This document shows, piece by piece, positions 3,893-21,024 of a stretch of DNA of 64,000 bases. The notes under the pieces were generated by a model. The model searched no databases. It worked only from the letters and a program-made list of their open reading frames with translations, and was not told the origin of the DNA. Numbering within the stretch: the stretch's first letter is position 1; each line of letters starts with the position of its first letter. The DNA is from Candidatus Melainabacteria bacterium 17Bon1m (lineage in GTDB: Bacteria > Cyanobacteriota > Vampirovibrionia > Obscuribacterales > Obscuribacteraceae), in assembly GCA_032128875.1 (NCBI GenBank), contig JAVLKG010000010.1, forward strand, positions 64,001 through 128,000, given 5' to 3'. Made by a program: the position numbers and the translations under genes.

Positions 3893-4681
3893 TCATGTTA
3901 AAGCGCCAAACAGCTCTTCCTCCAGTCTTCCTTCCATAAGGCTTGCGACTTCATCTAAAAATGCCGCAGCAGCGGGCATGTCTAAAACATTGGCATTGAA
4001 ATTGAGCGAGATTGTCATCATCGGTCGCACTGCAATTTTTTCATCGATTACGACGGGCCGGTCTTCAATTGTCCCAATGGCAAAAGTAGATGTACAGATG
4101 CATGGACCTAGAGCCATAACCATTTTGTACTTTCCTAAGGACGTTAGGCCAAATGTTGCTTTTTGGCACTTCAACCTCAATCTGGGAAAAGTGCAGCCTA
4201 CAGAAATGATCAAACGTCGTACAAGATACGGAAGAGCAGCATAAGCTTTTTGCTTGGCAAAAGATGCCAGTTTTTGAGGACTCTCTTTGACATAGCTACT
4301 CAGCTCGTCAGCTATTGTTGCCAGTGTTTTATTGTGAAGGTCCTCCACTTCAGCAAAGAAAACCGTATTTGAGCCCTCTTCCTCCCGCTCCACAGTAACG
4401 CCCCCAACAATACTTTCGTAAGTTACTAGCCTTCCGAAAGGTAAAAGCTCGGACCTGCTCATTGGATGCGCTTTCTGAGCAATTGCTATGGCCTTTAGCA
4501 ATATCGCTGTAAAGGTAATTTTGACTCCGTCTTCTTCAAAGTCTGATCTCAACCGGCGTGCCCAGCTCATATCCACATCGCGAAAAACATAGGAAGCAGT
4601 CGCCTGTGGAGCGATCATCGTCAAAAGATCGACAACGGTCTTTCTGCCCACCTCGAATCTTTTGAATGTGATGCTTTCCAT
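3893..4681 (-). CDS. Stand-alone 2-oxoacid dehydrogenase E2 (acyltransferase) catalytic-domain-like protein
   Basis: DVDMS, KITFTAILLKAIA, TFGLTSLG and IGTIEDRPVV...RPMMTISLNF match the E2 catalytic domain; no lipoyl domain; the HxxxDG motif is altered. Confidence 0.8.
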   Translation of the reverse strand: MESITFKRFEVGRKTVVDLLTMIAPQATASYVFRDVDMSWARRLRSDFEEDGVKITFTAILLKAIAIAQKAHPMSRSELLPFGRLVTYESIVGGVTVEREEEGSNTVFFAEVEDLHNKTLATIADELSSYVKESPQKLASFAKQKAYAALPYLVRRLIISVGCTFPRLRLKCQKATFGLTSLGKYKMVMALGPCICTSTFAIGTIEDRPVVIDEKIAVRPMMTISLNFNANVLDMPAAAAFLDEVASLMEGRLEEELFGALT

Positions 4682-4947
4682 GTTCCTCTGCCCGTATTTA
4701 TCTCAGTTGCGAGGTAATTTTAGACATCAACAATATTTCTTCTTTTTGAGAGCGGTAGGCTTCAGTACACATTTAGATTGTCAAAGACGTAAAGGCTAAC
4801 GGCATCAATCCCAGTGATGATCCCCAAATAACCTGATTATGCAGGCGCACTCATACCAAAGATGATGCTGCAAGACTTGAGGACGATGCTCAAAGTGTTG
4901 GCGCGTACTTAAATTGAAATGATCATCAGACTAATGAGGAAAGAAAA

Positions 4948-5361
4948 ATGGGACGTCATTTGCTGCGATTGCTTTTTACATCGGCAAGCTTCTACTTCTT
5001 ATTGCCCCTAATTCCAGGAGTACAGTTTCACGGAAGTTTTTTGCATGCTCTTTTGGCTGGCATTCTCTTCACTGTATTTGCCTGGGTAGTTGAGCTTGCG
5101 GCAATGACGGTAAGTGCCACTTTGCTCATTGCAACACTAGGCATGGCACTTTTCATTCTTGCGCCCTTGTGGCTTCTCGGCTTCTTTCTCTTGCCCGCTA
5201 TAGCCTTGAGACTTGTCGCCGATACCATTCCTTCGGTCATCTGGTTTTCCGGCTGGTGGCCGGCAATTTGGAGCGGTCTTGTCGTACTTTTCATTGGCGT
5301 AACGACAAGCGGCGACATTCATGTGCGCATGAGAAGAAACGGCCCTGCTGCTCAAATTTAG
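4948..5361 (+). CDS. 4-TM phage holin superfamily IV (YvlD-like) membrane protein
   Basis: 137 aa, hydrophobic; IPGV.F...ALLAGILF, TLG, F.GWWPAI pattern; GAGGA RBS. Confidence 0.7.
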   Translation: MGRHLLRLLFTSASFYFLLPLIPGVQFHGSFLHALLAGILFTVFAWVVELAAMTVSATLLIATLGMALFILAPLWLLGFFLLPAIALRLVADTIPSVIWFSGWWPAIWSGLVVLFIGVTTSGDIHVRMRRNGPAAQI

Positions 5362-12090: not shown

Positions 12091-13443
12091 TTAGCGCTTC
12101 AGTGATAGGAAAGAACGCTTCGGTGCCGGTAGGGAGGCGACGCCGGCTGCAAATCCTTTTGCATATGCATCGTCTAGTAGAGTCGGCAAGTATGGCTTGG
12201 CACAAAAGTCTTCGAGCGCGTCGATCCAATACTTGAGCGAATTTTCCTGCGGCAGTATCTTCGCATTTCGAATGGCGCTTTCGCAAAGGCGCACCACATC
12301 ATTCACAGCATCTTGCTTCGCATGATTTTTGCGAATGTACTCTTTTGCAGCTTTAGATATCTCGTCGCGATGAGCCTTGTCGTTGATGAGGTCGGAAACA
12401 GCCGCAACGAGCATGCGATGACATGCAGGCTCAGTCAGCACAGCATTCTCTCCATCGACCAAACACTCCCGCAATGTTCCGACAGCCGAACATACGACAA
12501 CTGCGCCCACAGACATAGCTTCCGCCACGTGATACATACATCCACAATATCTGAACGGAAAAACGGCGACGTCCGAAGAAGCAAGCAATGATGCACGTTT
12601 CTCCGCATCGAGAGCCGGAAGCCACTCGACATGCTTGTCGAGTTCGCCCAGTTGCTCCCTCAGTTTGTCTCGATATGAAACAGTCTCCCCAAACAACGGA
12701 GGCGACTCTCCTGCCATCGTAAAAAGTGCCCGTGGAAATCGTTCAACAAGAGCTGGAATTGCTTCGACCAATATATCAATGCCCTTGTAACGCTCCTGAG
12801 TTCCGATATGGACAATGTGCGGTTCGCCAGTTCTTCCATTCCACGGCTGCGGATGCTGCTGGGACTCAATCGCAGTTCTGTAGATGTCCGTTCTCTCTTC
12901 AGCAACCTCCCCAACATCAATTATGATGTTGCGCATCATTTCGCTCGGACTACCAATCACACTCATACTTCGCATCGCTGCGGTTTCCACCGCAGTGACA
13001 AGATTGGTGTCGACTGGATTAAAGCTGCCATCGAAGTTTTCGCGCATGATTTCAAACTGCGGTGTGACGCTCATCAAAGCGACCGGCAGTTTTTCAAAGC
13101 AACTCCAAAACATTCCATCGATTGCTTTCACGCATAAGACCACATCTGGTGCGTAGCCTATGACGTCATCTCGATGGGCTCTATATGTTTCATACGCACG
13201 TGAAAAAACCCAGCTGAAGACTGGTGCGCAGGCAAGCGAATGCAGGTTATTGTATCGCTCCAACTCACCCTTTCGGCAGAAAACTTTGGCATCGATGTCG
13301 TCAAAGTCTTGGTCACCAAGCGCGAAAACGACTGTTTCGTGCCCAGCTTTCTTCAAGTCAGTTACTACATGCTTGAAGAAAGACGTTGTGACAGCGTCAA
13401 GCTGATCGCCTTCGTAATAGCTAGTGATAAAAGCGACTTTCAT
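12091..13443 (-). CDS. Glycosyltransferase family 4
   Basis: YKGIDIL, DVAVFP, EAMSVGAVVV, GT-B layout. Confidence 0.9.
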   Translation of the reverse strand: MKVAFITSYYEGDQLDAVTTSFFKHVVTDLKKAGHETVVFALGDQDFDDIDAKVFCRKGELERYNNLHSLACAPVFSWVFSRAYETYRAHRDDVIGYAPDVVLCVKAIDGMFWSCFEKLPVALMSVTPQFEIMRENFDGSFNPVDTNLVTAVETAAMRSMSVIGSPSEMMRNIIIDVGEVAEERTDIYRTAIESQQHPQPWNGRTGEPHIVHIGTQERYKGIDILVEAIPALVERFPRALFTMAGESPPLFGETVSYRDKLREQLGELDKHVEWLPALDAEKRASLLASSDVAVFPFRYCGCMYHVAEAMSVGAVVVCSAVGTLRECLVDGENAVLTEPACHRMLVAAVSDLINDKAHRDEISKAAKEYIRKNHAKQDAVNDVVRLCESAIRNAKILPQENSLKYWIDALEDFCAKPYLPTLLDDAYAKGFAAGVASLPAPKRSFLSLKR

Positions 13444-14324
13444 TGGCCTTGCAGAACAGACTTCACTTTATTGAAGACTCTCATCGAGAGTCTTTGGTTG
13501 AGTTGAACATTCTCGGCTGACAGCGCTGCAAAGCGCTGTTCGAGATCTTCGTGATGCGCGCTCAATTCTTTGAAGGCATCATGCAGTTGTTGATACTCAT
13601 CCACAGACTTGAAATATTTCTGCTCCATGTTTTCTAGAATCTCCGGCAAATGCTTTTCGTAAAGCGCCGGATGTTCTTTCGCAAAACTAGCTAGAGCGGC
13701 TGCACGGTTGGTCGTTGATTTGCCTCTTTCGTGTTTTCGATAGTAATAGAGTGGTTCTTCAACACGCAAAAACTTATGCCCCTGGCTCAATGCGCGCAAC
13801 CAAAACTCATCGTCATCGTGATAGACGCTCGTGTTATATCCACCTAGTTGGTCGAACATTTTACGCTGGTAGAGAAAGGTTGTCGGAGCAGGCTTGCCCG
13901 ACATGATATCTAATATGGTGCATTCCGGAACATGCACGAGATTATGGTTACCGAACAACTGTGTCTGCGTAAACACGCCGCTGTATTCGGGACTGTAAGA
14001 CGCAATGACTGTCTCTGCATAGCGAGAATCGAGTAAATCATCTGAGTCCAAAGGCAAAACAAACTCGCCCTTACCCGCTGCAATGCCAGTGTTCTTTGCC
14101 GCTGCGCTACCACCGTTTTTGTCGCGTCGAATGATCGAAAGCCTTTCACCGTGCTTTGCTGCCACGTCTTTCAGCAACTCGCGTGCATCTGCTACTGGAG
14201 AAGCATCATCTACGACAATAGTCTCGGTGTTAGCATATGACTGCCCCAGCGCGCTTTCGACAGCCAGCCGCAGGTGAGCAGTGTGGTCGTAGTACGGAAT
14301 GACAATGGTGACTAGGGGTTTCAT
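13440..14324 (-). CDS. Glycosyltransferase family 2 with C-terminal coiled coil
   Basis: VTIVIPYY, IVVDDAS, LDSDD, DDDEFWLR. Confidence 0.92.
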   Translation of the reverse strand: MKPLVTIVIPYYDHTAHLRLAVESALGQSYANTETIVVDDASPVADARELLKDVAAKHGERLSIIRRDKNGGSAAAKNTGIAAGKGEFVLPLDSDDLLDSRYAETVIASYSPEYSGVFTQTQLFGNHNLVHVPECTILDIMSGKPAPTTFLYQRKMFDQLGGYNTSVYHDDDEFWLRALSQGHKFLRVEEPLYYYRKHERGKSTTNRAAALASFAKEHPALYEKHLPEILENMEQKYFKSVDEYQQLHDAFKELSAHHEDLEQRFAALSAENVQLNQRLSMRVFNKVKSVLQGQ

Positions 14325-14369
14325 TAGGTTTTAGACGCAGCAATTGCAACTTGTCGTCGCCAAGCTTGT

Positions 14370-15791
14370 TTATTGTTTGAGTATCGGCTTGAGGCCTTCG
14401 GTGATGATAGATGCCAGCTTGCGGTGCCCCGCCGGTGAGAAGTGCGCACTATAGTAAAGCGGACTCTTTTGCATTGGAGACAGACTGGGAAAGTGCTCAG
14501 CAGCATCGATGATGGCAATGCCTTCTTGAGCCCCCATTTTCTTGAGCGCCTTGATCTCTTTGTAGTAGAAAACCATGTTGTCCAGGGACGGCAACGTAAC
14601 GATCACCAGCTTTGAACCGGAATTGTTGCAGGCCTTATTGAGCATGCGAAACACACGACCAGTCAGATTCACATCTGCGCGTGCGGCATCATTCAACATC
14701 TTGAAGCTTTCCTGTCCACTTGCATCAGCGGCATTTACATCACCCAGACGCGGTTGAACAACAGATGTCCAAATGTCTTCATGACTAATCTGTTTGTCCA
14801 ATGCACGAGTCTCATCACAAACAGCCTTTCTCTGCGCTTCGTAGTCTCCAAGTTTTGAAAGCGGTACATTCGCCATCTCGTTCTCAATACTGCCGGAGAA
14901 TGGTGCCAAAAGAGCATTGAAGGTACTCAAATACCACTTGCTTGAGGAGCGCAACATGAAGTCGTCGGCGCACAGTGCTTGAAAGAGATGGCAATTTCGG
15001 CGCAACCATTCGCTCGCGATCATAAACTTCACGCCTTCCGTGTGCAGCCAGCCATCCATGAAGTTGTAGTCGATGGTTAGCTCGTCTTTGTTGTTGGCGG
15101 ATAGTGTAGGCGCAGGCAAAGTCACCGTGCCAAACTTAGGAAAATTCTCCGTCGAATCGAAGATGTTGTAGACAACGACTGTCACATCAGGCGAATAAGG
15201 ACGAACCCGAGTCAAGTAATTGACGAAGTACTGGACGATTCCATAGCTGGACATTCCGAAATTGATCGTTTCAAATTTCTGCTTTGGAACACTTTGTCCT
15301 GGTTGTGCTTGTTGTTGACTTTGCGCATTGAGGTTGTTTTCAACAAGTCGCACAAATGTGTCCGCGATCGGCACCTGCATCGCCTGCGTTTTCGAATCAC
15401 CAATGAAAGCAATACGAGTCACTCCGGCGGGTTTGGCTAGTTGATGTTCCACATCGCGCCAACCAGCGGACGAAATCTTTTCGCGCGCAAAACCTTCTTG
15501 GCGGAAGTCGACCCATTTGTTTTCGAGATGGCTGATGCCGAGAATCGGATCAATCTTGATGTACTCGTCATCACCTAGACCGAGGAGACCCATGGCTCCT
15601 TCTGCAACAACAAGCATTACGGCAAAGATCAATAGTATGGAAGGAACAACGAACAGTGCAGCGCGAAACCTTTGGAAATTAGTTGGACCTTGTTTGTTTG
15701 GAGACTTTGATTGAAGCACGCGTCTATCCGCGGTGCTGACGGCAACAGTCGTTGTGATTACTTCAGGATCGTAGAGGGTTGTTGGTGACAT
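14370..15791 (-). CDS. Membrane-anchored SGNH/GDSL-like protein (AlgJ-like O-acyltransferase partner)
   Basis: N-terminal TM helix, IAFIGDS block I, INFGMSSYG block II, HFSPAGH near the C-terminus; directly downstream of an MBOAT gene. Confidence 0.75.
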   Translation of the reverse strand: MSPTTLYDPEVITTTVAVSTADRRVLQSKSPNKQGPTNFQRFRAALFVVPSILLIFAVMLVVAEGAMGLLGLGDDEYIKIDPILGISHLENKWVDFRQEGFAREKISSAGWRDVEHQLAKPAGVTRIAFIGDSKTQAMQVPIADTFVRLVENNLNAQSQQQAQPGQSVPKQKFETINFGMSSYGIVQYFVNYLTRVRPYSPDVTVVVYNIFDSTENFPKFGTVTLPAPTLSANNKDELTIDYNFMDGWLHTEGVKFMIASEWLRRNCHLFQALCADDFMLRSSSKWYLSTFNALLAPFSGSIENEMANVPLSKLGDYEAQRKAVCDETRALDKQISHEDIWTSVVQPRLGDVNAADASGQESFKMLNDAARADVNLTGRVFRMLNKACNNSGSKLVIVTLPSLDNMVFYYKEIKALKKMGAQEGIAIIDAAEHFPSLSPMQKSPLYYSAHFSPAGHRKLASIITEGLKPILKQ

Positions 15792-15811
15792 GTTTGAACT
15801 TGCTTACGCAC

Positions 15812-17341
15812 CTAAAACTGGAAGTAGATAAAAGGCTGAGATTCACCGCGACAAATGGCTAAAAGCATTAGTCCAATGAAAAACGAGATACCTATGTTTG
15901 CCATCGCAGGCAGTGGCACGGTCGCGGGAGCAGATAGCGATTTCAAGTCTAAACCAGGAACAAGATGCGATCCTGCGTCGCCCAAGGTCGATGTCTTTTC
16001 TAGCCGTTTTATAAGAGCGCCGCTAGCAAGAATCAAGAGATAGACACAAATTGCAGCGGGCACTGGTGAGTTGAAGAACGAGTGCGCAACTGCGCAATCT
16101 ATTTGTGCAGTCCGCAGTGAGAACATTGCACCGAAAACACCAATCGCCTCAGGCAGGGTTTTTGCGCGGAAAAGAACCCAGCCGCAAAGCACAGTAACGA
16201 TGGTTATTACATGGGCAACTGCCATGCCAACCAACGAATTAGCAGCTCGTGAAAGCGCTGGTGCTTTCGCTAGCTGCTTGTCCCACGCTCTATTGACTGC
16301 TAATCCCACTCCGTGGAAAAGTCCCCACAGGACGAACGTCCATGAAGCTCCGTGCCACAGGCCGCCAAGCAACATAGTCGTGATCAGATTGGCAGATGTC
16401 TGCGCTTCTTTGCCGCGCGAGCCACCCAGAGGAATAAAGAGATAATCGCGCAACCATGTGGACAAACTCATGTGCCAACGGTGCCAGAACTCACGAAGAC
16501 TGGAGGCAATGTACGGCATGTTGAAGTTTTCCGGCAAAGAATAACCCAAGAGCTTCGCCGAACCTCTGCCGATATCTGTGTAGCCGGAGAAGTCATAGTA
16601 AATTTGAAATGCAAAAGCGGCGATACAGAGCCAACCTTCAAACGTTCCCATGAGATTGGGATTATCAAAGCCGGCTTTAACAATCGGCGCAAGATTGTCT
16701 CCCAGTGCGGTTTTCTTGAACAAACCTTGAACAATGAGAAATAGACCTGATGCAAATTGCTCGAAGGTAACTTCAGGCTTTTCATCGAGCTGTTTATCAA
16801 AATCTTGGTAGCGCTTGATTGGACCGGCAATCTGCGACGGGAAGAAGGACGCAAACAAGGCAAAGCGCAAGGGATTCTTTACAGGCTTGCTTCCTTTATA
16901 TATGTCTACAAGGTAATGAATAAACTCGAAGACAAAAAAGGAAATGCCGAGAGGAAGAATGATTGGTAGGTCTGAGATGCCGGTACCTTTGTCCAGCGGA
17001 AAAGCAAGAAAACGCCCCAGCCAGGCGCAAGACGTGTTAATCGAATCGAGAATAAAGTTGGTGTACTTGTAGAGCGCCAACGTAGAAAGGTTGAGGGCTA
17101 TCCCGGCGATCAATATCAGCCGGCGCGTTGCATGCTGCTCGAACCGACCGACAAGCAGCCCCAGCACATAATTGGCGACAGTCAGGCCCAGGAGCAAAAG
17201 CCCGTAGACCTTGAAGGAGTACATGTAAAAGAAGTAGCTAGCCGCAATGAGCAATACCGGCTTCACCTGACGTGGAACGAGCCAGTAGGCAAGAACCACC
17301 ACGGGCAGAAAGACCAGGTATTCGAAGCTATTGAATAACAA
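15812..17341 (-). CDS. MBOAT O-acyltransferase, AlgI/PatA type
   Basis: MLFNS, LPLGISFF, FFPSQIAGPI, YDFSGYTD, EFWHRWHMSLSTWLRDYLFIPLGG, GLWHGA, FIYFQF. Confidence 0.95.
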   Translation of the reverse strand: MLFNSFEYLVFLPVVVLAYWLVPRQVKPVLLIAASYFFYMYSFKVYGLLLLGLTVANYVLGLLVGRFEQHATRRLILIAGIALNLSTLALYKYTNFILDSINTSCAWLGRFLAFPLDKGTGISDLPIILPLGISFFVFEFIHYLVDIYKGSKPVKNPLRFALFASFFPSQIAGPIKRYQDFDKQLDEKPEVTFEQFASGLFLIVQGLFKKTALGDNLAPIVKAGFDNPNLMGTFEGWLCIAAFAFQIYYDFSGYTDIGRGSAKLLGYSLPENFNMPYIASSLREFWHRWHMSLSTWLRDYLFIPLGGSRGKEAQTSANLITTMLLGGLWHGASWTFVLWGLFHGVGLAVNRAWDKQLAKAPALSRAANSLVGMAVAHVITIVTVLCGWVLFRAKTLPEAIGVFGAMFSLRTAQIDCAVAHSFFNSPVPAAICVYLLILASGALIKRLEKTSTLGDAGSHLVPGLDLKSLSAPATVPLPAMANIGISFFIGLMLLAICRGESQPFIYFQF

Positions 17342-17744
17342 AGCGAGGCAGCTCCAAAATCTCGCCGGCCCGAAGCCTTGAAAGGGCTGTATGCCCCATA
17401 TGGCGAGACTTACAGAGTTTACAAGATAGTAAGTCTTGTTCCATGACTACCCTCTCAGGTTGGGCACCCGTACATAAAGCGTTTCTAACAAACCTGAGAG
17501 AAATCGCAGCGAGATATGCAGCCTATTTCGATCGCAGACAAAATCAGTTCTTAATCGATATGCAATCGATAGAATTCTCGCAGTATTCTCGATCATCGTT
17601 GCCGCACGGAATGATCCGGCGCTTGTTAACGAAACCAAGCCACCAAAAGTGGCACCAAAAGCAACGCGATCGAATATCAAGTAATACATCCTTAAATGAC
17701 TACTGGGGTACTTCCGCGCATATTCCAATTTCCAGAATGCGCGA

Positions 17745-17750
17745 TAAACT
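17745..17750 (+). promoter_or_regulatory. Putative -10 element (TAAACT) of structured RNA copy 1
   Basis: TAAACTAAATGCAT is identical in both copies immediately before the conserved core. Confidence 0.55.
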
Positions 17751-17756
17751 AAATGC

Positions 17757-17968
17757 ATAACCGGTGAGCAATCACTCGAACGAGTTGAGAGCTTTGAGCC
17801 GAGGGGCCCTGTGGAAACATCAGGTTGGCGCTAACCAGATACGGTAGCAAGGGACCCGCATCACATGAAGGACTGACTGAAGTGTGGTGAAATACTGAGC
17901 CCAACGCAAGGGGCAGTCAGGCAGTAGCATGAAGACCGTCGCAGAGCAATCTGGACGGTCTTTTTGTT
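17757..17968 (+). ncRNA. Unidentified structured non-coding RNA, copy 1
   Basis: About 12 differences from 20041-20252 over ~170 core nt by eye; compensatory or GU-compatible changes in stems; GNRA tetraloops; ends in an intrinsic terminator. Confidence 0.8.
17932..17968 (+). terminator. Intrinsic terminator of RNA copy 1
   Basis: AAGACCGTC-G-CAGA-GCAA-TCTG-GACGGTCTT then TTTGTT. Confidence 0.85.
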
Positions 17969-18086
17969 GCGCTAAAATGCAAGCGTAATTGATGTTTCGA
18001 CCAGAGATTTTTTGATGTTTCAACCCGAGATACTTTGAACTTTCGTCAAAGACTCATCGGATAAATCCGCAGGAGATTCACTAAAT

Positions 18087-18416
18087 ATGCCGGTTTTCCC
18101 TGTCCAATTTTTACAACGCATGCGCAACGCTGGACTAGGTGTTTATAGCGAAGCACCGAGCAAAGAAGTCGATGGCGTTGGTCCGCGTGTGACTGCGGTT
18201 GATGGCGATTACAAGGTGTATCTGTACGGTGCAAAGGACAAATGGGTTGTAGAAGCAATATTCTCACCCGAAGAAAAAAGCCCATGCGACTTTCATGCAG
18301 TTTTTGACACTCCAGCCGACGCGGTGGCTGACGCCATCGCATATTTCAAGAAAGATGAGCGCTGGCAAGCAACGAAGGACTTTATGGAAAGCACTGGCAA
18401 AAAACCTCAGCCTTAG
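18087..18416 (+). CDS. Hypothetical protein (109 aa)
   Basis: AGGAG RBS, globular composition, no family recognised. Confidence 0.7.
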   Translation: MPVFPVQFLQRMRNAGLGVYSEAPSKEVDGVGPRVTAVDGDYKVYLYGAKDKWVVEAIFSPEEKSPCDFHAVFDTPADAVADAIAYFKKDERWQATKDFMESTGKKPQP

Positions 18417-18501
18417 GCGTTTCCAAACCAGTTTACGCATTTGAGAAATTCAATACAGCCGACATATCAAACGGCTATAATCCGCATATCCCCGCTTATC
18501 A

Positions 18502-19356
18502 TTGGAGCCTGAAGTGCCCAGAGACAGAATAAGTCTTCAAATTCTTTTCGACCGGTTACCGCAATTCAGCGAGCGCGACCTCGATGAAGCAGCAAAGAAT
18601 GTTTCTCACAATCCGCCGGATTTTCGTTATCAACTGCCAAAAGACACATCGGTTGCAGGAGAGGGCGCAGCGTCTTCCAATGCGCACAAAATTCGCATTA
18701 CCTTCAGCGATAAAAAACTCGAAGAGAGAGATTTAGCTCAAATTAGCGCGCACGTGCGTTTGGTCCCGGACACTGTTGCTGCGATCGAAAAACACACGGC
18801 TTATATTGAACTGTCGGTCGAGCCCAATCCTGCAAAACCGCTTGATGCCTATCAGGAGCTCACATTTCTTGCTTGCTTGATCGCTTTGAGAGATGGTTCG
18901 GCGATTACTAATATCAATGGATTTACAAGCTTCAGCGCGCCTGGGATGCTGCAATTGCTAGCTGACAATGATTGGTCGGATGCGATTCAGGAAATGCCTC
19001 CGCTGTTTTTATATTGTGGTCCAGTCTTGCATGAATTCGATAACAACACGAATTTGTGGATGCGCTCCTACGGAAGCCATTTGCTCGGTATTCCCGATCT
19101 GGGCACCATAATCCCAACAGAGATTATTCAAGAATACGTGCCAATGACGCTGCAAATCTTCGACAACATGATGTCTTACATGATTGAGTCTGGGAATGCA
19201 GTCGAGCCCGGCCACACGATGGAGACGGATTCGGTCACGATAAAACTCTTTGACCAACAGGCCGCGGATGATGAATATTTCTATCAAAGCCCTTCAGGCA
19301 TGTTGCGCGTTGAGTACACGCCTAAGCCAGGCTTCGTGATGCCCCGATTTGCATGA
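18502..19356 (+). CDS. Hypothetical protein, probable DUF4261-type C-terminal domain
   Basis: WMRSYGSHLLGIPDL...YMIESG..VEPGHT resembles DUF4261 from recollection; start uncertain. Confidence 0.6.
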   Translation: MEPEVPRDRISLQILFDRLPQFSERDLDEAAKNVSHNPPDFRYQLPKDTSVAGEGAASSNAHKIRITFSDKKLEERDLAQISAHVRLVPDTVAAIEKHTAYIELSVEPNPAKPLDAYQELTFLACLIALRDGSAITNINGFTSFSAPGMLQLLADNDWSDAIQEMPPLFLYCGPVLHEFDNNTNLWMRSYGSHLLGIPDLGTIIPTEIIQEYVPMTLQIFDNMMSYMIESGNAVEPGHTMETDSVTIKLFDQQAADDEYFYQSPSGMLRVEYTPKPGFVMPRFA

Positions 19357-19832
19357 GCGCAGAATTTTTCAGAATAAAAAACGGTCTGGCGCAAAATCTG
19401 ATTTTGCTTTTGGCTGCAATCTGTATACAAGGATGCGGTGAGCAAAAGCATGATTCAAGAGCGGAAGACGGTCCTCAGCGACCGGCGCCCTCAGCAGCGG
19501 CTGCAGAGGATGCTTACAAGAAGCGGTCACTGGAATTTCCTGCCGATTTTCCTTTGCCGAAATATCCGAATTCCGAATTAGAAGCATCGCAGGTAAAACT
19601 GAGTGATAAACCTGCGCACACCGTGATATTGACGTCACGAGATGACGTGCCGACTGTCTCTCATTACTATTTCAAAGCACTGAAACAGGGCGGTTGGGAC
19701 ATCGGAAAAGTCATAAACAACAAAACCTATATGATGCTGACCGCGTCAAAAGATGGTCGAGAAGCCAACGTGATGGTTTCGGAAACCCGCACAGGTATAA
19801 CCGCGATTTCTCTTTACTCGAACAAGAAATAG
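19353..19832 (+). CDS. Putative lipoprotein
   Basis: Hydrophobic stretch ending IQG-C; P.DFPLPKYPNS and V..YY..ALKQGGW pattern; ATGA overlap with the upstream gene. Confidence 0.7.
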   Translation: MSAEFFRIKNGLAQNLILLLAAICIQGCGEQKHDSRAEDGPQRPAPSAAAAEDAYKKRSLEFPADFPLPKYPNSELEASQVKLSDKPAHTVILTSRDDVPTVSHYYFKALKQGGWDIGKVINNKTYMMLTASKDGREANVMVSETRTGITAISLYSNKK

Positions 19833-20028
19833 AGAACGGATATACATCAAACATCCAAAACCCATACTGAATATTGCTCGATCCTGGTAAACCAAGCGCA
19901 TCAAATTGATCCGGCGCTTGTTAATCCATTTAATATGTCCAGGATGGCACCACCTGCGGTTCTTAAGTTTGCCAAGATACCCATTCTAAAATGTCCTTTG
20001 GGGTAGTTGTGCGTATGCCTAAACGCGG

Positions 20029-20034
20029 TAAACT
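20029..20034 (+). promoter_or_regulatory. Putative -10 element (TAAACT) of structured RNA copy 2
   Basis: Same position relative to the core as in copy 1; TTGTGC lies 16 nt upstream. Confidence 0.55.
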
Positions 20035-20040
20035 AAATGC

Positions 20041-20252
20041 ATCAACGGTGAGCAATCACTCAAACGAGTTGAGAGCTTTGAGCCGAGGGGCCATGCGGAA
20101 ACGCCAGGTTGGCGCTAACCAGAAACGGTAGCAAGGAGCCCGCATCACATGAAGGACTGACTGAAGTGTGGTGAAATACTGAGCCCTCGCAAAGGGCAGT
20201 CAGGTAGTAGCATGAATACCACCGCAGAGCAATCTGGGTGGTATTTTTGTTT
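20041..20252 (+). ncRNA. Unidentified structured non-coding RNA, copy 2
   Basis: Paralog of 17757-17968 with covarying stems and terminator; no ORF of 60 aa or more overlaps it. Confidence 0.8.
20215..20252 (+). terminator. Intrinsic terminator of RNA copy 2
   Basis: AATACCACC-G-CAGA-GCAA-TCTG-GGTGGTATT then TTTGTTT; three compensatory pairs relative to copy 1. Confidence 0.85.
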
Positions 20253-20277
20253 GTTCCGCTGAGATTCAGGGCTCACT

Positions 20278-21024
20278 TTGTTCGACTTCGTCCTTCAACT
20301 ACTTAGCTTTCTGGTTATCGCCCTGCTCTACTCCTCAGTCGGGCACGGCGGTGCGACAGGATATCTCGCGATTTTATCGCTGACCAAACTGCCGCCCAAT
20401 GAAATAGCCACGACGGCATTAGTCCTCAACGTGCTCACGGCAACAGTCTCGCTGTTGTTCTTTATCGAATCAAAACACTTCAAATTGAAGGTGTGCGCGC
20501 CACTTCTTGCAACTTCGATTCCAGCAGCTTTTGTTGGTGGAATGATTTCGCTGCACAAGGGCTATTTTCTGCTGCTCGCAGTCGTTCTTTTAGTGACTGC
20601 TTTGAAAATGTTTTACGACAGCTTTCACAAACCCGCTGAAGATTACGAAACCAAGCCGATCAATTATCCTCAAGCATTCGGAATTGGCGCGGGACTTGGA
20701 CTGCTCTCTGGAATGGCTGGTATCGGTGGTGGTGTCTTCCTAAGTCCAGTTCTTTTATTTTTGAACTGGACCACGGTTAAGCAAACTTCCGCAGCGGCAG
20801 CAATTTTCATCGTCTGTAATTCACTCTCTGGGCTGATCGGCAGGGCGGTGACAAACAGATTGGAGTTTGGGTCGATAATGCCGTATTTGGTGGCATCATT
20901 TATCGGAGCGATTGCCGGATCATTTCTTGGTTCGAAAAAACTTCAAAACAATATTCTGCGGCGTGCTTTAGCCGCAGTCCTCATTGTCGCAGTATTTAAG
21001 CTGCTTTTGCTGTTCTTCAAGTAA
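20278..21024 (+). CDS. Sulfite exporter TauE/SafE (TSUP) family transporter
   Basis: YSSVGHGGATGY, SIPAAFVGG, GLLSGMAGIGGGVFLSP, about 8 TM helices. Confidence 0.92.
   Translation: MFDFVLQLLSFLVIALLYSSVGHGGATGYLAILSLTKLPPNEIATTALVLNVLTATVSLLFFIESKHFKLKVCAPLLATSIPAAFVGGMISLHKGYFLLLAVVLLVTALKMFYDSFHKPAEDYETKPINYPQAFGIGAGLGLLSGMAGIGGGVFLSPVLLFLNWTTVKQTSAAAAIFIVCNSLSGLIGRAVTNRLEFGSIMPYLVASFIGAIAGSFLGSKKLQNNILRRALAAVLIVAVFKLLLLFFK

Follow-up and report, generated by a model that had tools for sequence, protein, structure and literature searches.

Two genes for the orphan structured RNA poplar-1 in Candidatus Melainabacteria bacterium 17Bon1m, members of a multi-copy family from one bacterial order

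Bacteria encode a number of elaborate structured RNAs, among them raiA, OLE, ROOL and GOLLD, whose functions are unknown or have been probed only recently. Other stand-alone RNAs provide further points of comparison: 6S RNA is an abundant transcript of roughly 200 nt that is present in more than one copy in some bacteria, and families such as Qrr1-5 and Yfr2-5 consist of sibling small RNAs. Poplar-1 has been another orphan, a strongly conserved and complex RNA without a known function and, to our knowledge, without a known host; Weinberg et al. 2017 reportedly described the family solely from metagenomes, with no classified host. Where does the duplicated element found in a 64,000-nucleotide window of Candidatus Melainabacteria bacterium 17Bon1m (the whole stretch of DNA that was analyzed, from contig JAVLKG010000010.1) belong among these RNAs?

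The two window elements are two of eight poplar-1 RNA (RF03041) genes in this genome. In an Rfam covariance-model search both matched RF03041, which Rfam types as Gene, sRNA, over its full length (model positions 1-141 of 141), with E-values of 1.8e-30 for copy A and 7.1e-34 for copy B and with scores (Table 1) above the curated cut-off of 110.5 bits. Because even the most distant copies still score about 100 bits with the model, we judge it sensitive enough. A sequence-only reading of the window had presented the element as an unidentified RNA in two copies and a candidate for a new system, and had itself named a significant Rfam match as the outcome that would overturn that proposal; this is the outcome obtained, and the genome carries eight copies rather than two. 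Poplar-1 is thus a family already catalogued as an orphan structured RNA, from which the window copies do not differ in kind. The main text of Weinberg et al. 2017 does not contain the word "poplar". What has endured from the sequence-only reading is the description of a structured, independently transcribed RNA gene, which is borne out by a promoter and terminator belonging to each copy and by strong covariation across homologues. More generally, strong-looking candidates for new RNAs should be compared with Rfam first.

Like raiA, OLE, ROOL and GOLLD, poplar-1 combines strong covariation, a complex fold and restriction to a lineage with the lack of a known function. Unlike all four, it occurs in several copies and within a single order, and it is smaller than OLE, ROOL and GOLLD. 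With 6S RNA it shares stand-alone transcription, a length of about 200 nt and the presence of more than one copy in some bacteria, but its fold is not a long bulged duplex. We rejected a 6S identity for the window copies because RF00013 has no match within the window and the genome carries its own 6S RNA gene elsewhere (G000:C7:122687-122898; 48.4 bits against a cut-off of 46.4). Similarly, poplar-1 resembles the CsrB/RsmZ-type protein-sequestering RNAs in being multi-copy and stand-alone and in displaying GGA loops in the copies of the source genus, whereas the GGA of its large loop adjoins a pseudoknot strand and is unconserved in distant copies. Since, in addition, CsrA (PF02599) was not found in the source genome, a CsrA-sequestering role was set aside.

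Table 1. Positions of the poplar-1 features in the window (R is A or G; N is any base).
Feature	Positions	Strand	Basis
Copy A upstream box TTAAAT-N7-GGGGTA	17692..17710	+	read from sequence
Copy A -10 hexamer TAAACT	17745..17750	+	read from sequence
Copy A predicted transcript, ~212 nt	17757..17968	+	start inferred from -10 hexamer, end from U run
Copy A 5' hairpin, kink-turn signature	17762..17801	+	covariation of helices 1 and 2, conservation, bulge length
Copy A core, RF03041 positions 1-141	17793..17931	+	136.5 bits
Copy A pseudoknot 5' strand CUGACU, inside hairpin loop	17873..17878	+	covariation, helix 7
Copy A pseudoknot 3' strand AGUCAG, inside internal loop	17915..17920	+	covariation, helix 7
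Copy A intrinsic terminator: long stem with one bulged G, GCAA loop, then U run	17933..17968	+	fold; covariation, helix 10
Copy B upstream box TAAAAT-N7-GGGGTA	19987..20005	+	read from sequence
Copy B -10 hexamer TAAACT	20029..20034	+	read from sequence
Copy B predicted transcript, ~212 nt	20041..20252	+	sequence, Rfam match, fold
Copy B 5' hairpin, kink-turn signature	20046..20085	+	covariation, conservation
Copy B core, RF03041	20077..20214	+	149.5 bits
Copy B pseudoknot 5' strand	20157..20162	+	covariation
Copy B pseudoknot 3' strand	20198..20203	+	covariation
Copy B intrinsic terminator	20216..20252	+	fold, covariation

The two copies lie at the positions that the sequence-only reading had assigned to them, as do the TAAACT boxes and the terminators, in each of which a U run comes after a long G+C hairpin. 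Inside the repeated unit, 192 of 213 aligned columns are identical (90.1%), compared with only 51-58% in the flanks, and the similarity stops at the promoter box on one side and at the terminator on the other. The predicted transcript exceeds the Rfam model by about 70 nt. The folding energy of both copies is better than that of all 200 shuffled sequences (z of -3.98 and -4.16), and three compensatory base-pair changes in the terminator are evident in the alignment of the two copies.

Which parts of the fold do the homologues support? An alignment of 110 distinct poplar-1 copies, in which 53 pairs were scored, supports the Rfam helices, the pseudoknot, the terminator and a 5' hairpin that lies beyond the Rfam model. 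Over the full fold, 96.2% of cells are paired, as against 32-43% when the partners are slid; changes on both sides occur in 46 of the 53 pairs, and the covariation score of 0.473 (at most 0.094 with slid partners) was reached by none of 500 shuffles. In the helices of the Rfam model (3-6, 8 and 9), 89.5-100% of cells are paired and 22 of 27 pairs change on both sides; all six pairs of the pseudoknot and all 12 pairs of the terminator also change on both sides. The predicted RNA can be divided into four parts: the 5' hairpin, with a consensus kink-turn signature; a three-helix arm containing a pseudo-symmetric 10+10-nt internal loop with two GAAAC motifs; a 3' domain that contains the pseudoknot and a GNRA-type loop; and the terminator hairpin. 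Its invariant unpaired stretches include GAAAUACUGAG and AGUAGC, and its most conserved loop, GAAGGACUGACUG, is taken up by the pseudoknot.

This alignment upholds one half of a fold drawn earlier by hand from the two copies. The CGG/CCG outer helix, GGG/CCC, the GCCC/GGGC hairpin and CUGACU/AGUCAG, which proves to be the pseudoknot, all covary in the 110 homologues, whereas UGA-GCAA-UCA, GUG-GAAA-CAU, GCUA.CC/GGUAGC and a hairpin with a GGUGAA loop are not backed by them. Pairing in these four helices reaches 67.7% of cells, as against 67.9% for shuffled controls, and is equalled or exceeded by 393 of the 500 shuffles. Consequently, the change from GUG-GAAA-CAU to GCG-GAAA-CGC, which had been counted as a compensation, does not represent a pair.

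The first 11 positions of the Rfam model, annotated as unpaired, are the 3' strand of the 5' hairpin, the 5' strand of which lies outside the model. In copy A this hairpin consists of the helix CGGU/GCCG, tandem GA/GA, a 3-nt bulge (UUU), a GC-closed stem and a variable loop. Of the 110 copies, 108-109 retain the G and the A of both tandem G.A pairs on both strands, 109 have a bulge of precisely 3 nt, which takes 15 different three-base sequences, and 104 retain the closing G-C pair; the helices on both sides of the signature covary. These are the sequence elements of a kink-turn (tandem sheared G.A/A.G pairs, a 3-nt bulge and two stems), and we propose that the hairpin is one. Kink-turns occur, for example, as Kt-7 of 23S rRNA, in the SAM-I and lysine riboswitches and in box C/D RNAs, and their binders are L7Ae-family proteins. 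The putative poplar-1 kink-turn shares with them the G-C-closed Watson-Crick stem, the 3-nt bulge of free sequence, the tandem G.A/A.G pairs and the second helix. It differs in that it is known here from its sequence signature, in its variable hairpin loop and in a host genome without an L7Ae-family protein: PF01248 was not found in the 93%-complete source genome, while the control was found in 7 of 14 genomes. The hairpin loop is unconserved and thus offers no basis for proposing a tertiary contact.

Each poplar-1 gene presents itself in sequence as a separate transcription unit, composed of a family-specific box, a sigma-70-type -10 element, a predicted RNA of about 210 nt and an intrinsic terminator. 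Among 109 distinct copies, the upstream box GGGGTR is present in 90, a TAnnnT hexamer occupies the -10 place in 85, and a U run follows the terminator in 102. The distance from GGGGTA to the -10 hexamer is 23 bases in most copies and 34 in copy A, an insertion of 11 bases. A simple promoter and terminator scan flagged neither element; these promoters have an atypical -35 region, the stem of the terminator is bulged with a long inner part, and both were read from alignments. The combined box (TTAAAT-N7-GGGGTA type) occurs at nine sites in the genome, namely the eight poplar-1 genes and one other. The ninth site (G000:C1:561909) is accompanied by neither a -10 hexamer at the right distance nor an Rfam match. 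A general stable-RNA promoter was considered and rejected, as no box is found in the 400 bases upstream of any of the 68 tRNA and tmRNA genes. The dedicated box suggests a single lineage-specific DNA-binding regulator, which would control all of the copies together.

How might poplar-1 act? We propose that several gene copies would supply the RNA in large amounts and that its three-dimensional fold would serve as a scaffold or decoy for a bound partner, most probably a protein. That it binds in this manner rather than by simple antisense pairing we hold to be not quite an even bet. The strongest competing explanation, which we nevertheless consider unlikely, is a family of sibling base-pairing small RNAs whose near-identical copies would use a conserved exposed segment to pair with target mRNAs. 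Such a family would account for the 1-14 copies per genome, for the promoter and Rho-independent terminator carried by each copy and for several unpaired stretches that are invariant, GAAAUACUGAG and AGUAGC among them. Yet with its pseudoknot, kink-turn signature and conserved 10+10 internal loop poplar-1 is far more elaborate than the known sibling small RNAs, and the most conserved loop, GAAGGACUGACUG, is occupied by the pseudoknot. Poplar-1 could also be a trans-acting aptamer or a ribozyme, sensing a ligand or performing catalysis on its own. The compact tertiary features (pseudoknot, GNRA-type loop, kink-turn signature and many invariant unpaired bases) fit such an RNA, as does the failure to find a protein partner among those looked for (L7Ae and CsrA); but there is neither a link to any metabolic gene set nor a known cleavage-site signature, and we regard this possibility as quite improbable.

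The preferred reading, a partner-binding RNA, supposes action in trans, which we consider likely from the genomic neighbours. ORFs were called crudely, by greedily choosing those of 100 aa or longer; on this basis, 53 of 113 copies are followed next by a same-strand ORF, 44 by a convergent ORF, 11 by another copy and five by nothing. The neighbours are unrelated housekeeping genes on either strand, including those for dUTPase, DapB, M16 peptidase, UbiD and TauE, in agreement with the argument of the sequence-only reading that unrelated downstream genes favour a trans-acting RNA. Since poplar-1 has its own promoter and terminator, covaries and lacks a consistent downstream gene or strand, it is neither a protein gene nor a mobile repeat and most likely acts in trans.

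These neighbours also bear on whether poplar-1 acts in cis, as a leader or riboswitch that governs the downstream gene by means of its terminator. A terminator does end each copy, and the 53 same-strand ORFs begin within 600 bases, at a median of 159 bases past the core; two arrangements, upstream of dut-dapB (seven loci) and upstream of the M16 peptidase gene (five loci), recur across genera; and in the source genome all four copies on contig C1 and both window copies precede same-strand ORFs. Against these points, a convergent gene faces 44 of the copies and 11 precede another copy, every member of an array has a promoter box of its own, and the downstream genes are functionally unrelated. 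Moreover, no conserved alternative pairing between core and terminator was seen by eye in the alignment of copies A and B, in which the 5' arm of the terminator differs and the core strand able to pair with that arm is identical. A riboswitch would be expected to hold a constant same-strand place before one functional gene set and to possess an antiterminator; poplar-1 shows neither such a place nor, on inspection by eye, a conserved antiterminator. Control in cis is therefore very unlikely; with its own box and terminator and mixed downstream features, poplar-1 is a stand-alone gene and not a leader. Read-through effects on some of the 53 same-strand neighbours within 600 bases are possible.

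Among the genomes searched, poplar-1 is confined to one order of non-photosynthetic cyanobacterial relatives: it is present in 101 of 107 genomes of that order, with 1-14 copies each, and in none of 150 other genomes of the phylum. Likewise, the named records that contain it bear the titles Obscuribacterales or Melainabacteria. Copies also stand in tandem arrays, spaced 400-900 bases apart. Even under laxer filters, five genomes of the order gave no match, and two of these reach 92% and 97% completeness, so the RNA is dispensable or replaced in some lineages. A sequence-pattern scan of genome contigs returned at least 119 stretches, most of them chance matches in unrelated phyla, and is too loose for a census; among 12 of its loci chosen by title or multiple matches, seven were true RF03041.

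That poplar-1 is a mobile or virus-derived repeat, such as a MITE or a phage or virus element, is hardly credible in spite of the eight copies in the genome and one IMG/VR contig with a matching segment, since the copies share a promoter and terminator and not terminal repeats, their positions are syntenic across genera, three further loci of the genus preserve the window pair along with the genes between its members, searches of 50,697 phage and 72,556 plasmid records gave no match, and the viral contig is a chimera. That contig places an RF03041 match (119.1 bits) ahead of ORFs for an RdRp and a coat protein. We rejected it as chimeric because four other contigs of this virus, with 96-99% protein identity, have another sequence, common to all four, upstream of the junction, and none of them matches RF03041.

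A separate contig of 186-190 nt covers copy A in the RNA libraries of one sample, at depths of 2828 and 5050 compared with 11-55 for its neighbours, contig depth being no measure of expression; such contigs show neither level, strand nor ends, and the libraries possibly contain DNA. Its ends (17779 and 17964-17968) were dismissed as transcript ends because they are assembly breaks. For copy B, the RNA-library pieces listed give low figures only, which carry no information. An excerpt of a preprint places poplar-1 among the small RNAs enriched in drinking-water intracellular RNA. Together, the contig and this listing give a weak hint that poplar-1 is abundant.

We infer that poplar-1 is a structured RNA that stands alone as a gene and acts in trans, probably with a bound partner. 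As an explanation of the whole, multi-copy and order-restricted genes for a trans-acting RNA with a putative partner-binding fold and shared upstream control have, in our estimation, slightly better than even chances. A more specific picture, which we offer as a long shot, is that poplar-1 forms the RNA core of a lineage-specific ribonucleoprotein or ribozyme in Obscuribacterales, in which the kink-turn hairpin and the double-GAAAC loop would recruit a dimeric non-L7Ae protein and the 1-14 copies would be switched together by one dedicated transcription factor reading TTAAAT-N7-GGGGTA.

Finally, these results add a host lineage, a copy number, a promoter box and likely full-length boundaries, set by the promoter, the putative 5' kink-turn hairpin and the terminator, to what is known of poplar-1. 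The RNA is now placed in a defined order, some members of which lack it, so that looking for a partner by genome comparison, and bench studies of a defined transcript, become feasible.

What is the duplicated RNA of about 210 nt encoded on contig C10? When the whole window was scanned against Rfam 15 (cmscan) at gathering thresholds, only two matches were returned, both to RF03041, poplar-1 RNA (type Gene; sRNA), whose cut-off is 110.5 bits. The novelty proposed in the sequence-only reading is thereby overturned, a significant Rfam match being the outcome which that reading itself had held to be refuting. Copies A and B are a real and well supported RNA gene pair, and they belong to a known family. 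The pair had been correctly delineated as two repeats: over 17757-17968 and 20041-20252, the alignment of the copies is identical at 192 of its 213 columns (90.1%), while their 130-base flanks share 51-58% identity, the level of unrelated sequence. The TAAACT box and terminator described around each copy are likewise present, and each 3' end consists of a long hairpin, rich in G+C, and then a U run. In single-strand folding, both copies beat 200 of 200 dinucleotide shuffles (z -3.98 and -4.16). A simple promoter/terminator scan left the promoters and terminators of both copies unflagged; the -35 region is atypical, and a bulged G interrupts the terminator stem, whose inner part is long.

Coordinates of the poplar-1 copies, their signals and other features in genome G000 (Candidatus Melainabacteria bacterium 17Bon1m); positions are those of the window unless a contig (C) or examined locus (L) is named
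Feature	Position	Score	Remarks
Copy A, RF03041 match	17793-17931	136.5 bits, E 1.8e-30	model positions 1-141 of 141; 5', divergent MBOAT gene; 3', three ORFs (109, 284, 159 aa)
Copy B, RF03041 match	20077-20214	149.5 bits, E 7.1e-34	model positions 1-141 of 141; 3', TauE-family permease
TAAACT, copy A	17745-17750
TAAACT, copy B	20029-20034
GGGGTA box to -10 hexamer, copy A	17711-17744		11 extra bases
ORF run upstream of copy A	13440-17341 (-)		includes MBOAT acyltransferase (509 aa) and a 473-aa ORF
Paralogous protein pair	C1:139566-142237 (L217:2566-3600, 4155-5237)		344 and 360 aa, 27% identical
2915-aa ORF	C1:142787-151534 (L217:5787-14534)		GT2, glucoamylase-like and GH94 domains
Ninth TTAAAT-N7-GGGGTA box	C1:561909-561935 (L216:1010-1036)		sole such site that is not poplar-1
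6S RNA gene	C7:122687-122898	48.4 bits (cut-off 46.4)	canonical

The family is said to originate with Weinberg et al. in 2017 and to have been found in metagenomes only. The word "poplar" is absent from the main text of that paper (Weinberg et al. 2017, PMC5737381), and searches of the full-text literature found no mention of RF03041 by accession and nothing on noncoding RNA in Obscuribacter. According to a drinking-water metatranscriptome study, poplar-1 is among the small RNAs enriched in intracellular RNA. Four RNA libraries made from a single sample contain 97% of the words sampled from window positions 17600-20400, and contigs assembled from these libraries cover the whole stretch, their ends not being equivalent to transcript ends. 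A separate short contig lies over copy A in three of the four runs (186-190 nt in two, 96 nt in the third), with depth figures far above those of its neighbours; as contig depth is no measure of expression and such libraries may contain DNA, we take this contig as a weak hint of expression.

The fold of poplar-1 was evaluated with 110 distinct copies from 96 loci, each spanning the Rfam core plus 48 bases on its 5' side and 62 on its 3' side, and aligned with the structure-blind program MAFFT. The tested structure, of 53 pairs in all, extends the Rfam helices by a 5' helix and the stem that follows it, by a pseudoknot and by the terminator. Paired cells amount to 96.2%, versus 31.8-42.9% after sliding the partners by 1-3 columns; covariation scores 0.473, versus at most 0.094 for slid partners, and 46 of the 53 pairs show two-sided changes. 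None of 500 shuffles reached any of these measures, a control that overstates support because the sequences are related; the slid control is free of that weakness. By contrast with this structure, the four other hairpins of the earlier hand-drawn fold fail, with 67.7% of cells paired versus 67.9% in shuffles, 393 of 500 of which equal them.

Three features lie beyond the Rfam model or are missing from the cmscan structure line: a 5' hairpin, a pseudoknot and the terminator. In the 5' hairpin, model positions 1-11, which Rfam draws as unpaired, form a helix with a strand upstream of them, its outset being C-G in 97 copies, G-C in 10 and A-U in 2 at the first pair. This helix is separated from the following stem by an invariant GA on each strand, with the G and A kept in 108-109 of 110 copies, and by a bulge whose length is exactly 3 nt in all but one of the 110 and which is filled by 15 different three-base sequences. 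The stem past the bulge is closed by G-C in 104 of 110 copies and covaries at all four pairs, and the loop beyond varies in length and sequence. At the level of sequence, the 5' hairpin has the putative signature of a kink-turn. In a 6-bp pseudoknot, the large hairpin loop pairs with the internal loop of the last helix, with two-sided changes at 6 of 6 pairs, and the terminator shows them at 12 of 12. Arm P1-P3 contains an internal loop of 10+10 nt in which both strands carry GAAAC; we read this loop as pseudo-symmetric.

How is poplar-1 transcribed? Of 109 distinct copies that have sufficient sequence on the 5' side, GGGGTR occurs in 90, starting 48 bases ahead of the first helix in 57 of these; T[TA]AA[AT] lies exactly 13 bases ahead of the box in 65, a TAnnnT hexamer where expected in 85, and a U run past the terminator hairpin in 102. 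The combined box has nine sites in G000, eight of which are poplar-1 genes; GGGGTA[CG]T by itself occurs 57 times, and no tRNA or tmRNA gene of the genome lies downstream of such a box. Relative to most copies, the spacing in copy A is longer by about one helical turn, an insertion also present at locus L015 in a related genome; its transcript is predicted from the -10 hexamer to start near 17757. The ninth box lies in some 900 bases that contain no convincing ORF and is immediately preceded by a terminator-like hairpin; neither a -10 hexamer at the usual distance nor an Rfam match was found for it.

We propose, as the best reading, that poplar-1 is a folded RNA which acts in trans and has a binding partner. 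Neither CsrA nor an L7Ae-family protein was found in G000, which is 93% complete. A sibling family of base-pairing RNAs, and an RNA that binds a ligand or is catalytic, are less probable alternatives. A separate 6S RNA gene is present elsewhere in the genome, and we reject that identity for poplar-1. A cis leader is unlikely because the downstream genes share neither function nor strand rule; that they are unrelated had been noted in the earlier reading for the window pair. Of 113 distinct copies, by crude greedy ORF calls, 53 are next followed by a same-strand ORF, 44 by a convergent ORF, 11 by another copy and 5 by nothing. This pattern fits a trans-acting gene. Two arrangements do recur across genera: dUTPase (7 loci, two overlapping on one genome) and DapB (5 loci) are preceded by one to four copies, and an M16 peptidase by a single one (5 loci).

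Of the three ORFs 3' of copy A, one has a weak, below-threshold match to DUF4261 and the others match nothing. The minus-strand run upstream, whose 473-aa product faintly matches GDSL lipase, may be a surface-polymer acylation cluster. On C1, the four copies precede, in order, two paralogous coiled-coil proteins, the 2915-aa protein and a dehydrogenase. Each paralog lies on the same strand 3' of a poplar-1 copy and begins with a hydrophobic N-terminus that leads into a long, coiled-coil-like body, with a sole Pfam match (PspA/IM30) that is weak and below cut-off; the 2915-aa ORF, directly downstream of one copy, corresponds in domain make-up to a cyclic beta-1,2-glucan synthase.

We consider a mobile or viral origin very unlikely, as phage and plasmid records contain no match, poplar-1 contexts are syntenic and the sole viral contig with poplar-1 is a chimera. 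That contig (L221, IMG/VR, 2581 nt) matches in its first ~146 bases (119.1 bits), fused to an RNA-virus fragment with RdRp and S-domain coat-protein ORFs; we consider it chimeric because four near-identical virus contigs lack the poplar-1 segment. It hints at poplar-1 RNA in that sample.

Genome G000 (7.55 Mb, 35 contigs) has eight copies above cut-off rather than the two first supposed: four within 13 kb on C1, the window pair on C10, and one each on C2 and C4. Within Obscuribacterales, 101 of 107 genomes have poplar-1, 98 above cut-off, with 1-14 matches each; it was found in 0 of 13 genomes from other families of the class and 0 of 150 from the remaining phylum. Of 12 loci chosen by hand from a loose pattern scan of genome contigs, 7 have true RF03041 matches, with record titles Candidatus Obscuribacterales (2 loci), Candidatus Obscuribacteraceae, Candidatus Melainabacteria, "bacterium", "Proteobacteria bacterium" (L080) and "Drouetiella sp." (L086), the last with its match at a contig end. 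One of the two Candidatus Obscuribacterales records agrees at 100% identity over 3140 bases with a contig of G003, a genome assigned to the genus of G000. These last two, both MAG contigs, are probably mislabelled or mis-binned, since poplar-1 is otherwise restricted to one order.

Finally, judged against the Rfam model, and with the caveat that the original supplements may already draw some of the extras, our analysis adds to poplar-1 a host order, a copy number, an extended fold with the putative kink-turn signature, a dedicated promoter box and related genomes without the RNA. Six genomes of the order are match-less, one of them 65% complete; the other five (G081, G096, G097, G118 and G119, two of them 92% and 97% complete) were searched again with laxer filters and gave 0 of 5. 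These five are useful negatives for a phylogenetic profile.
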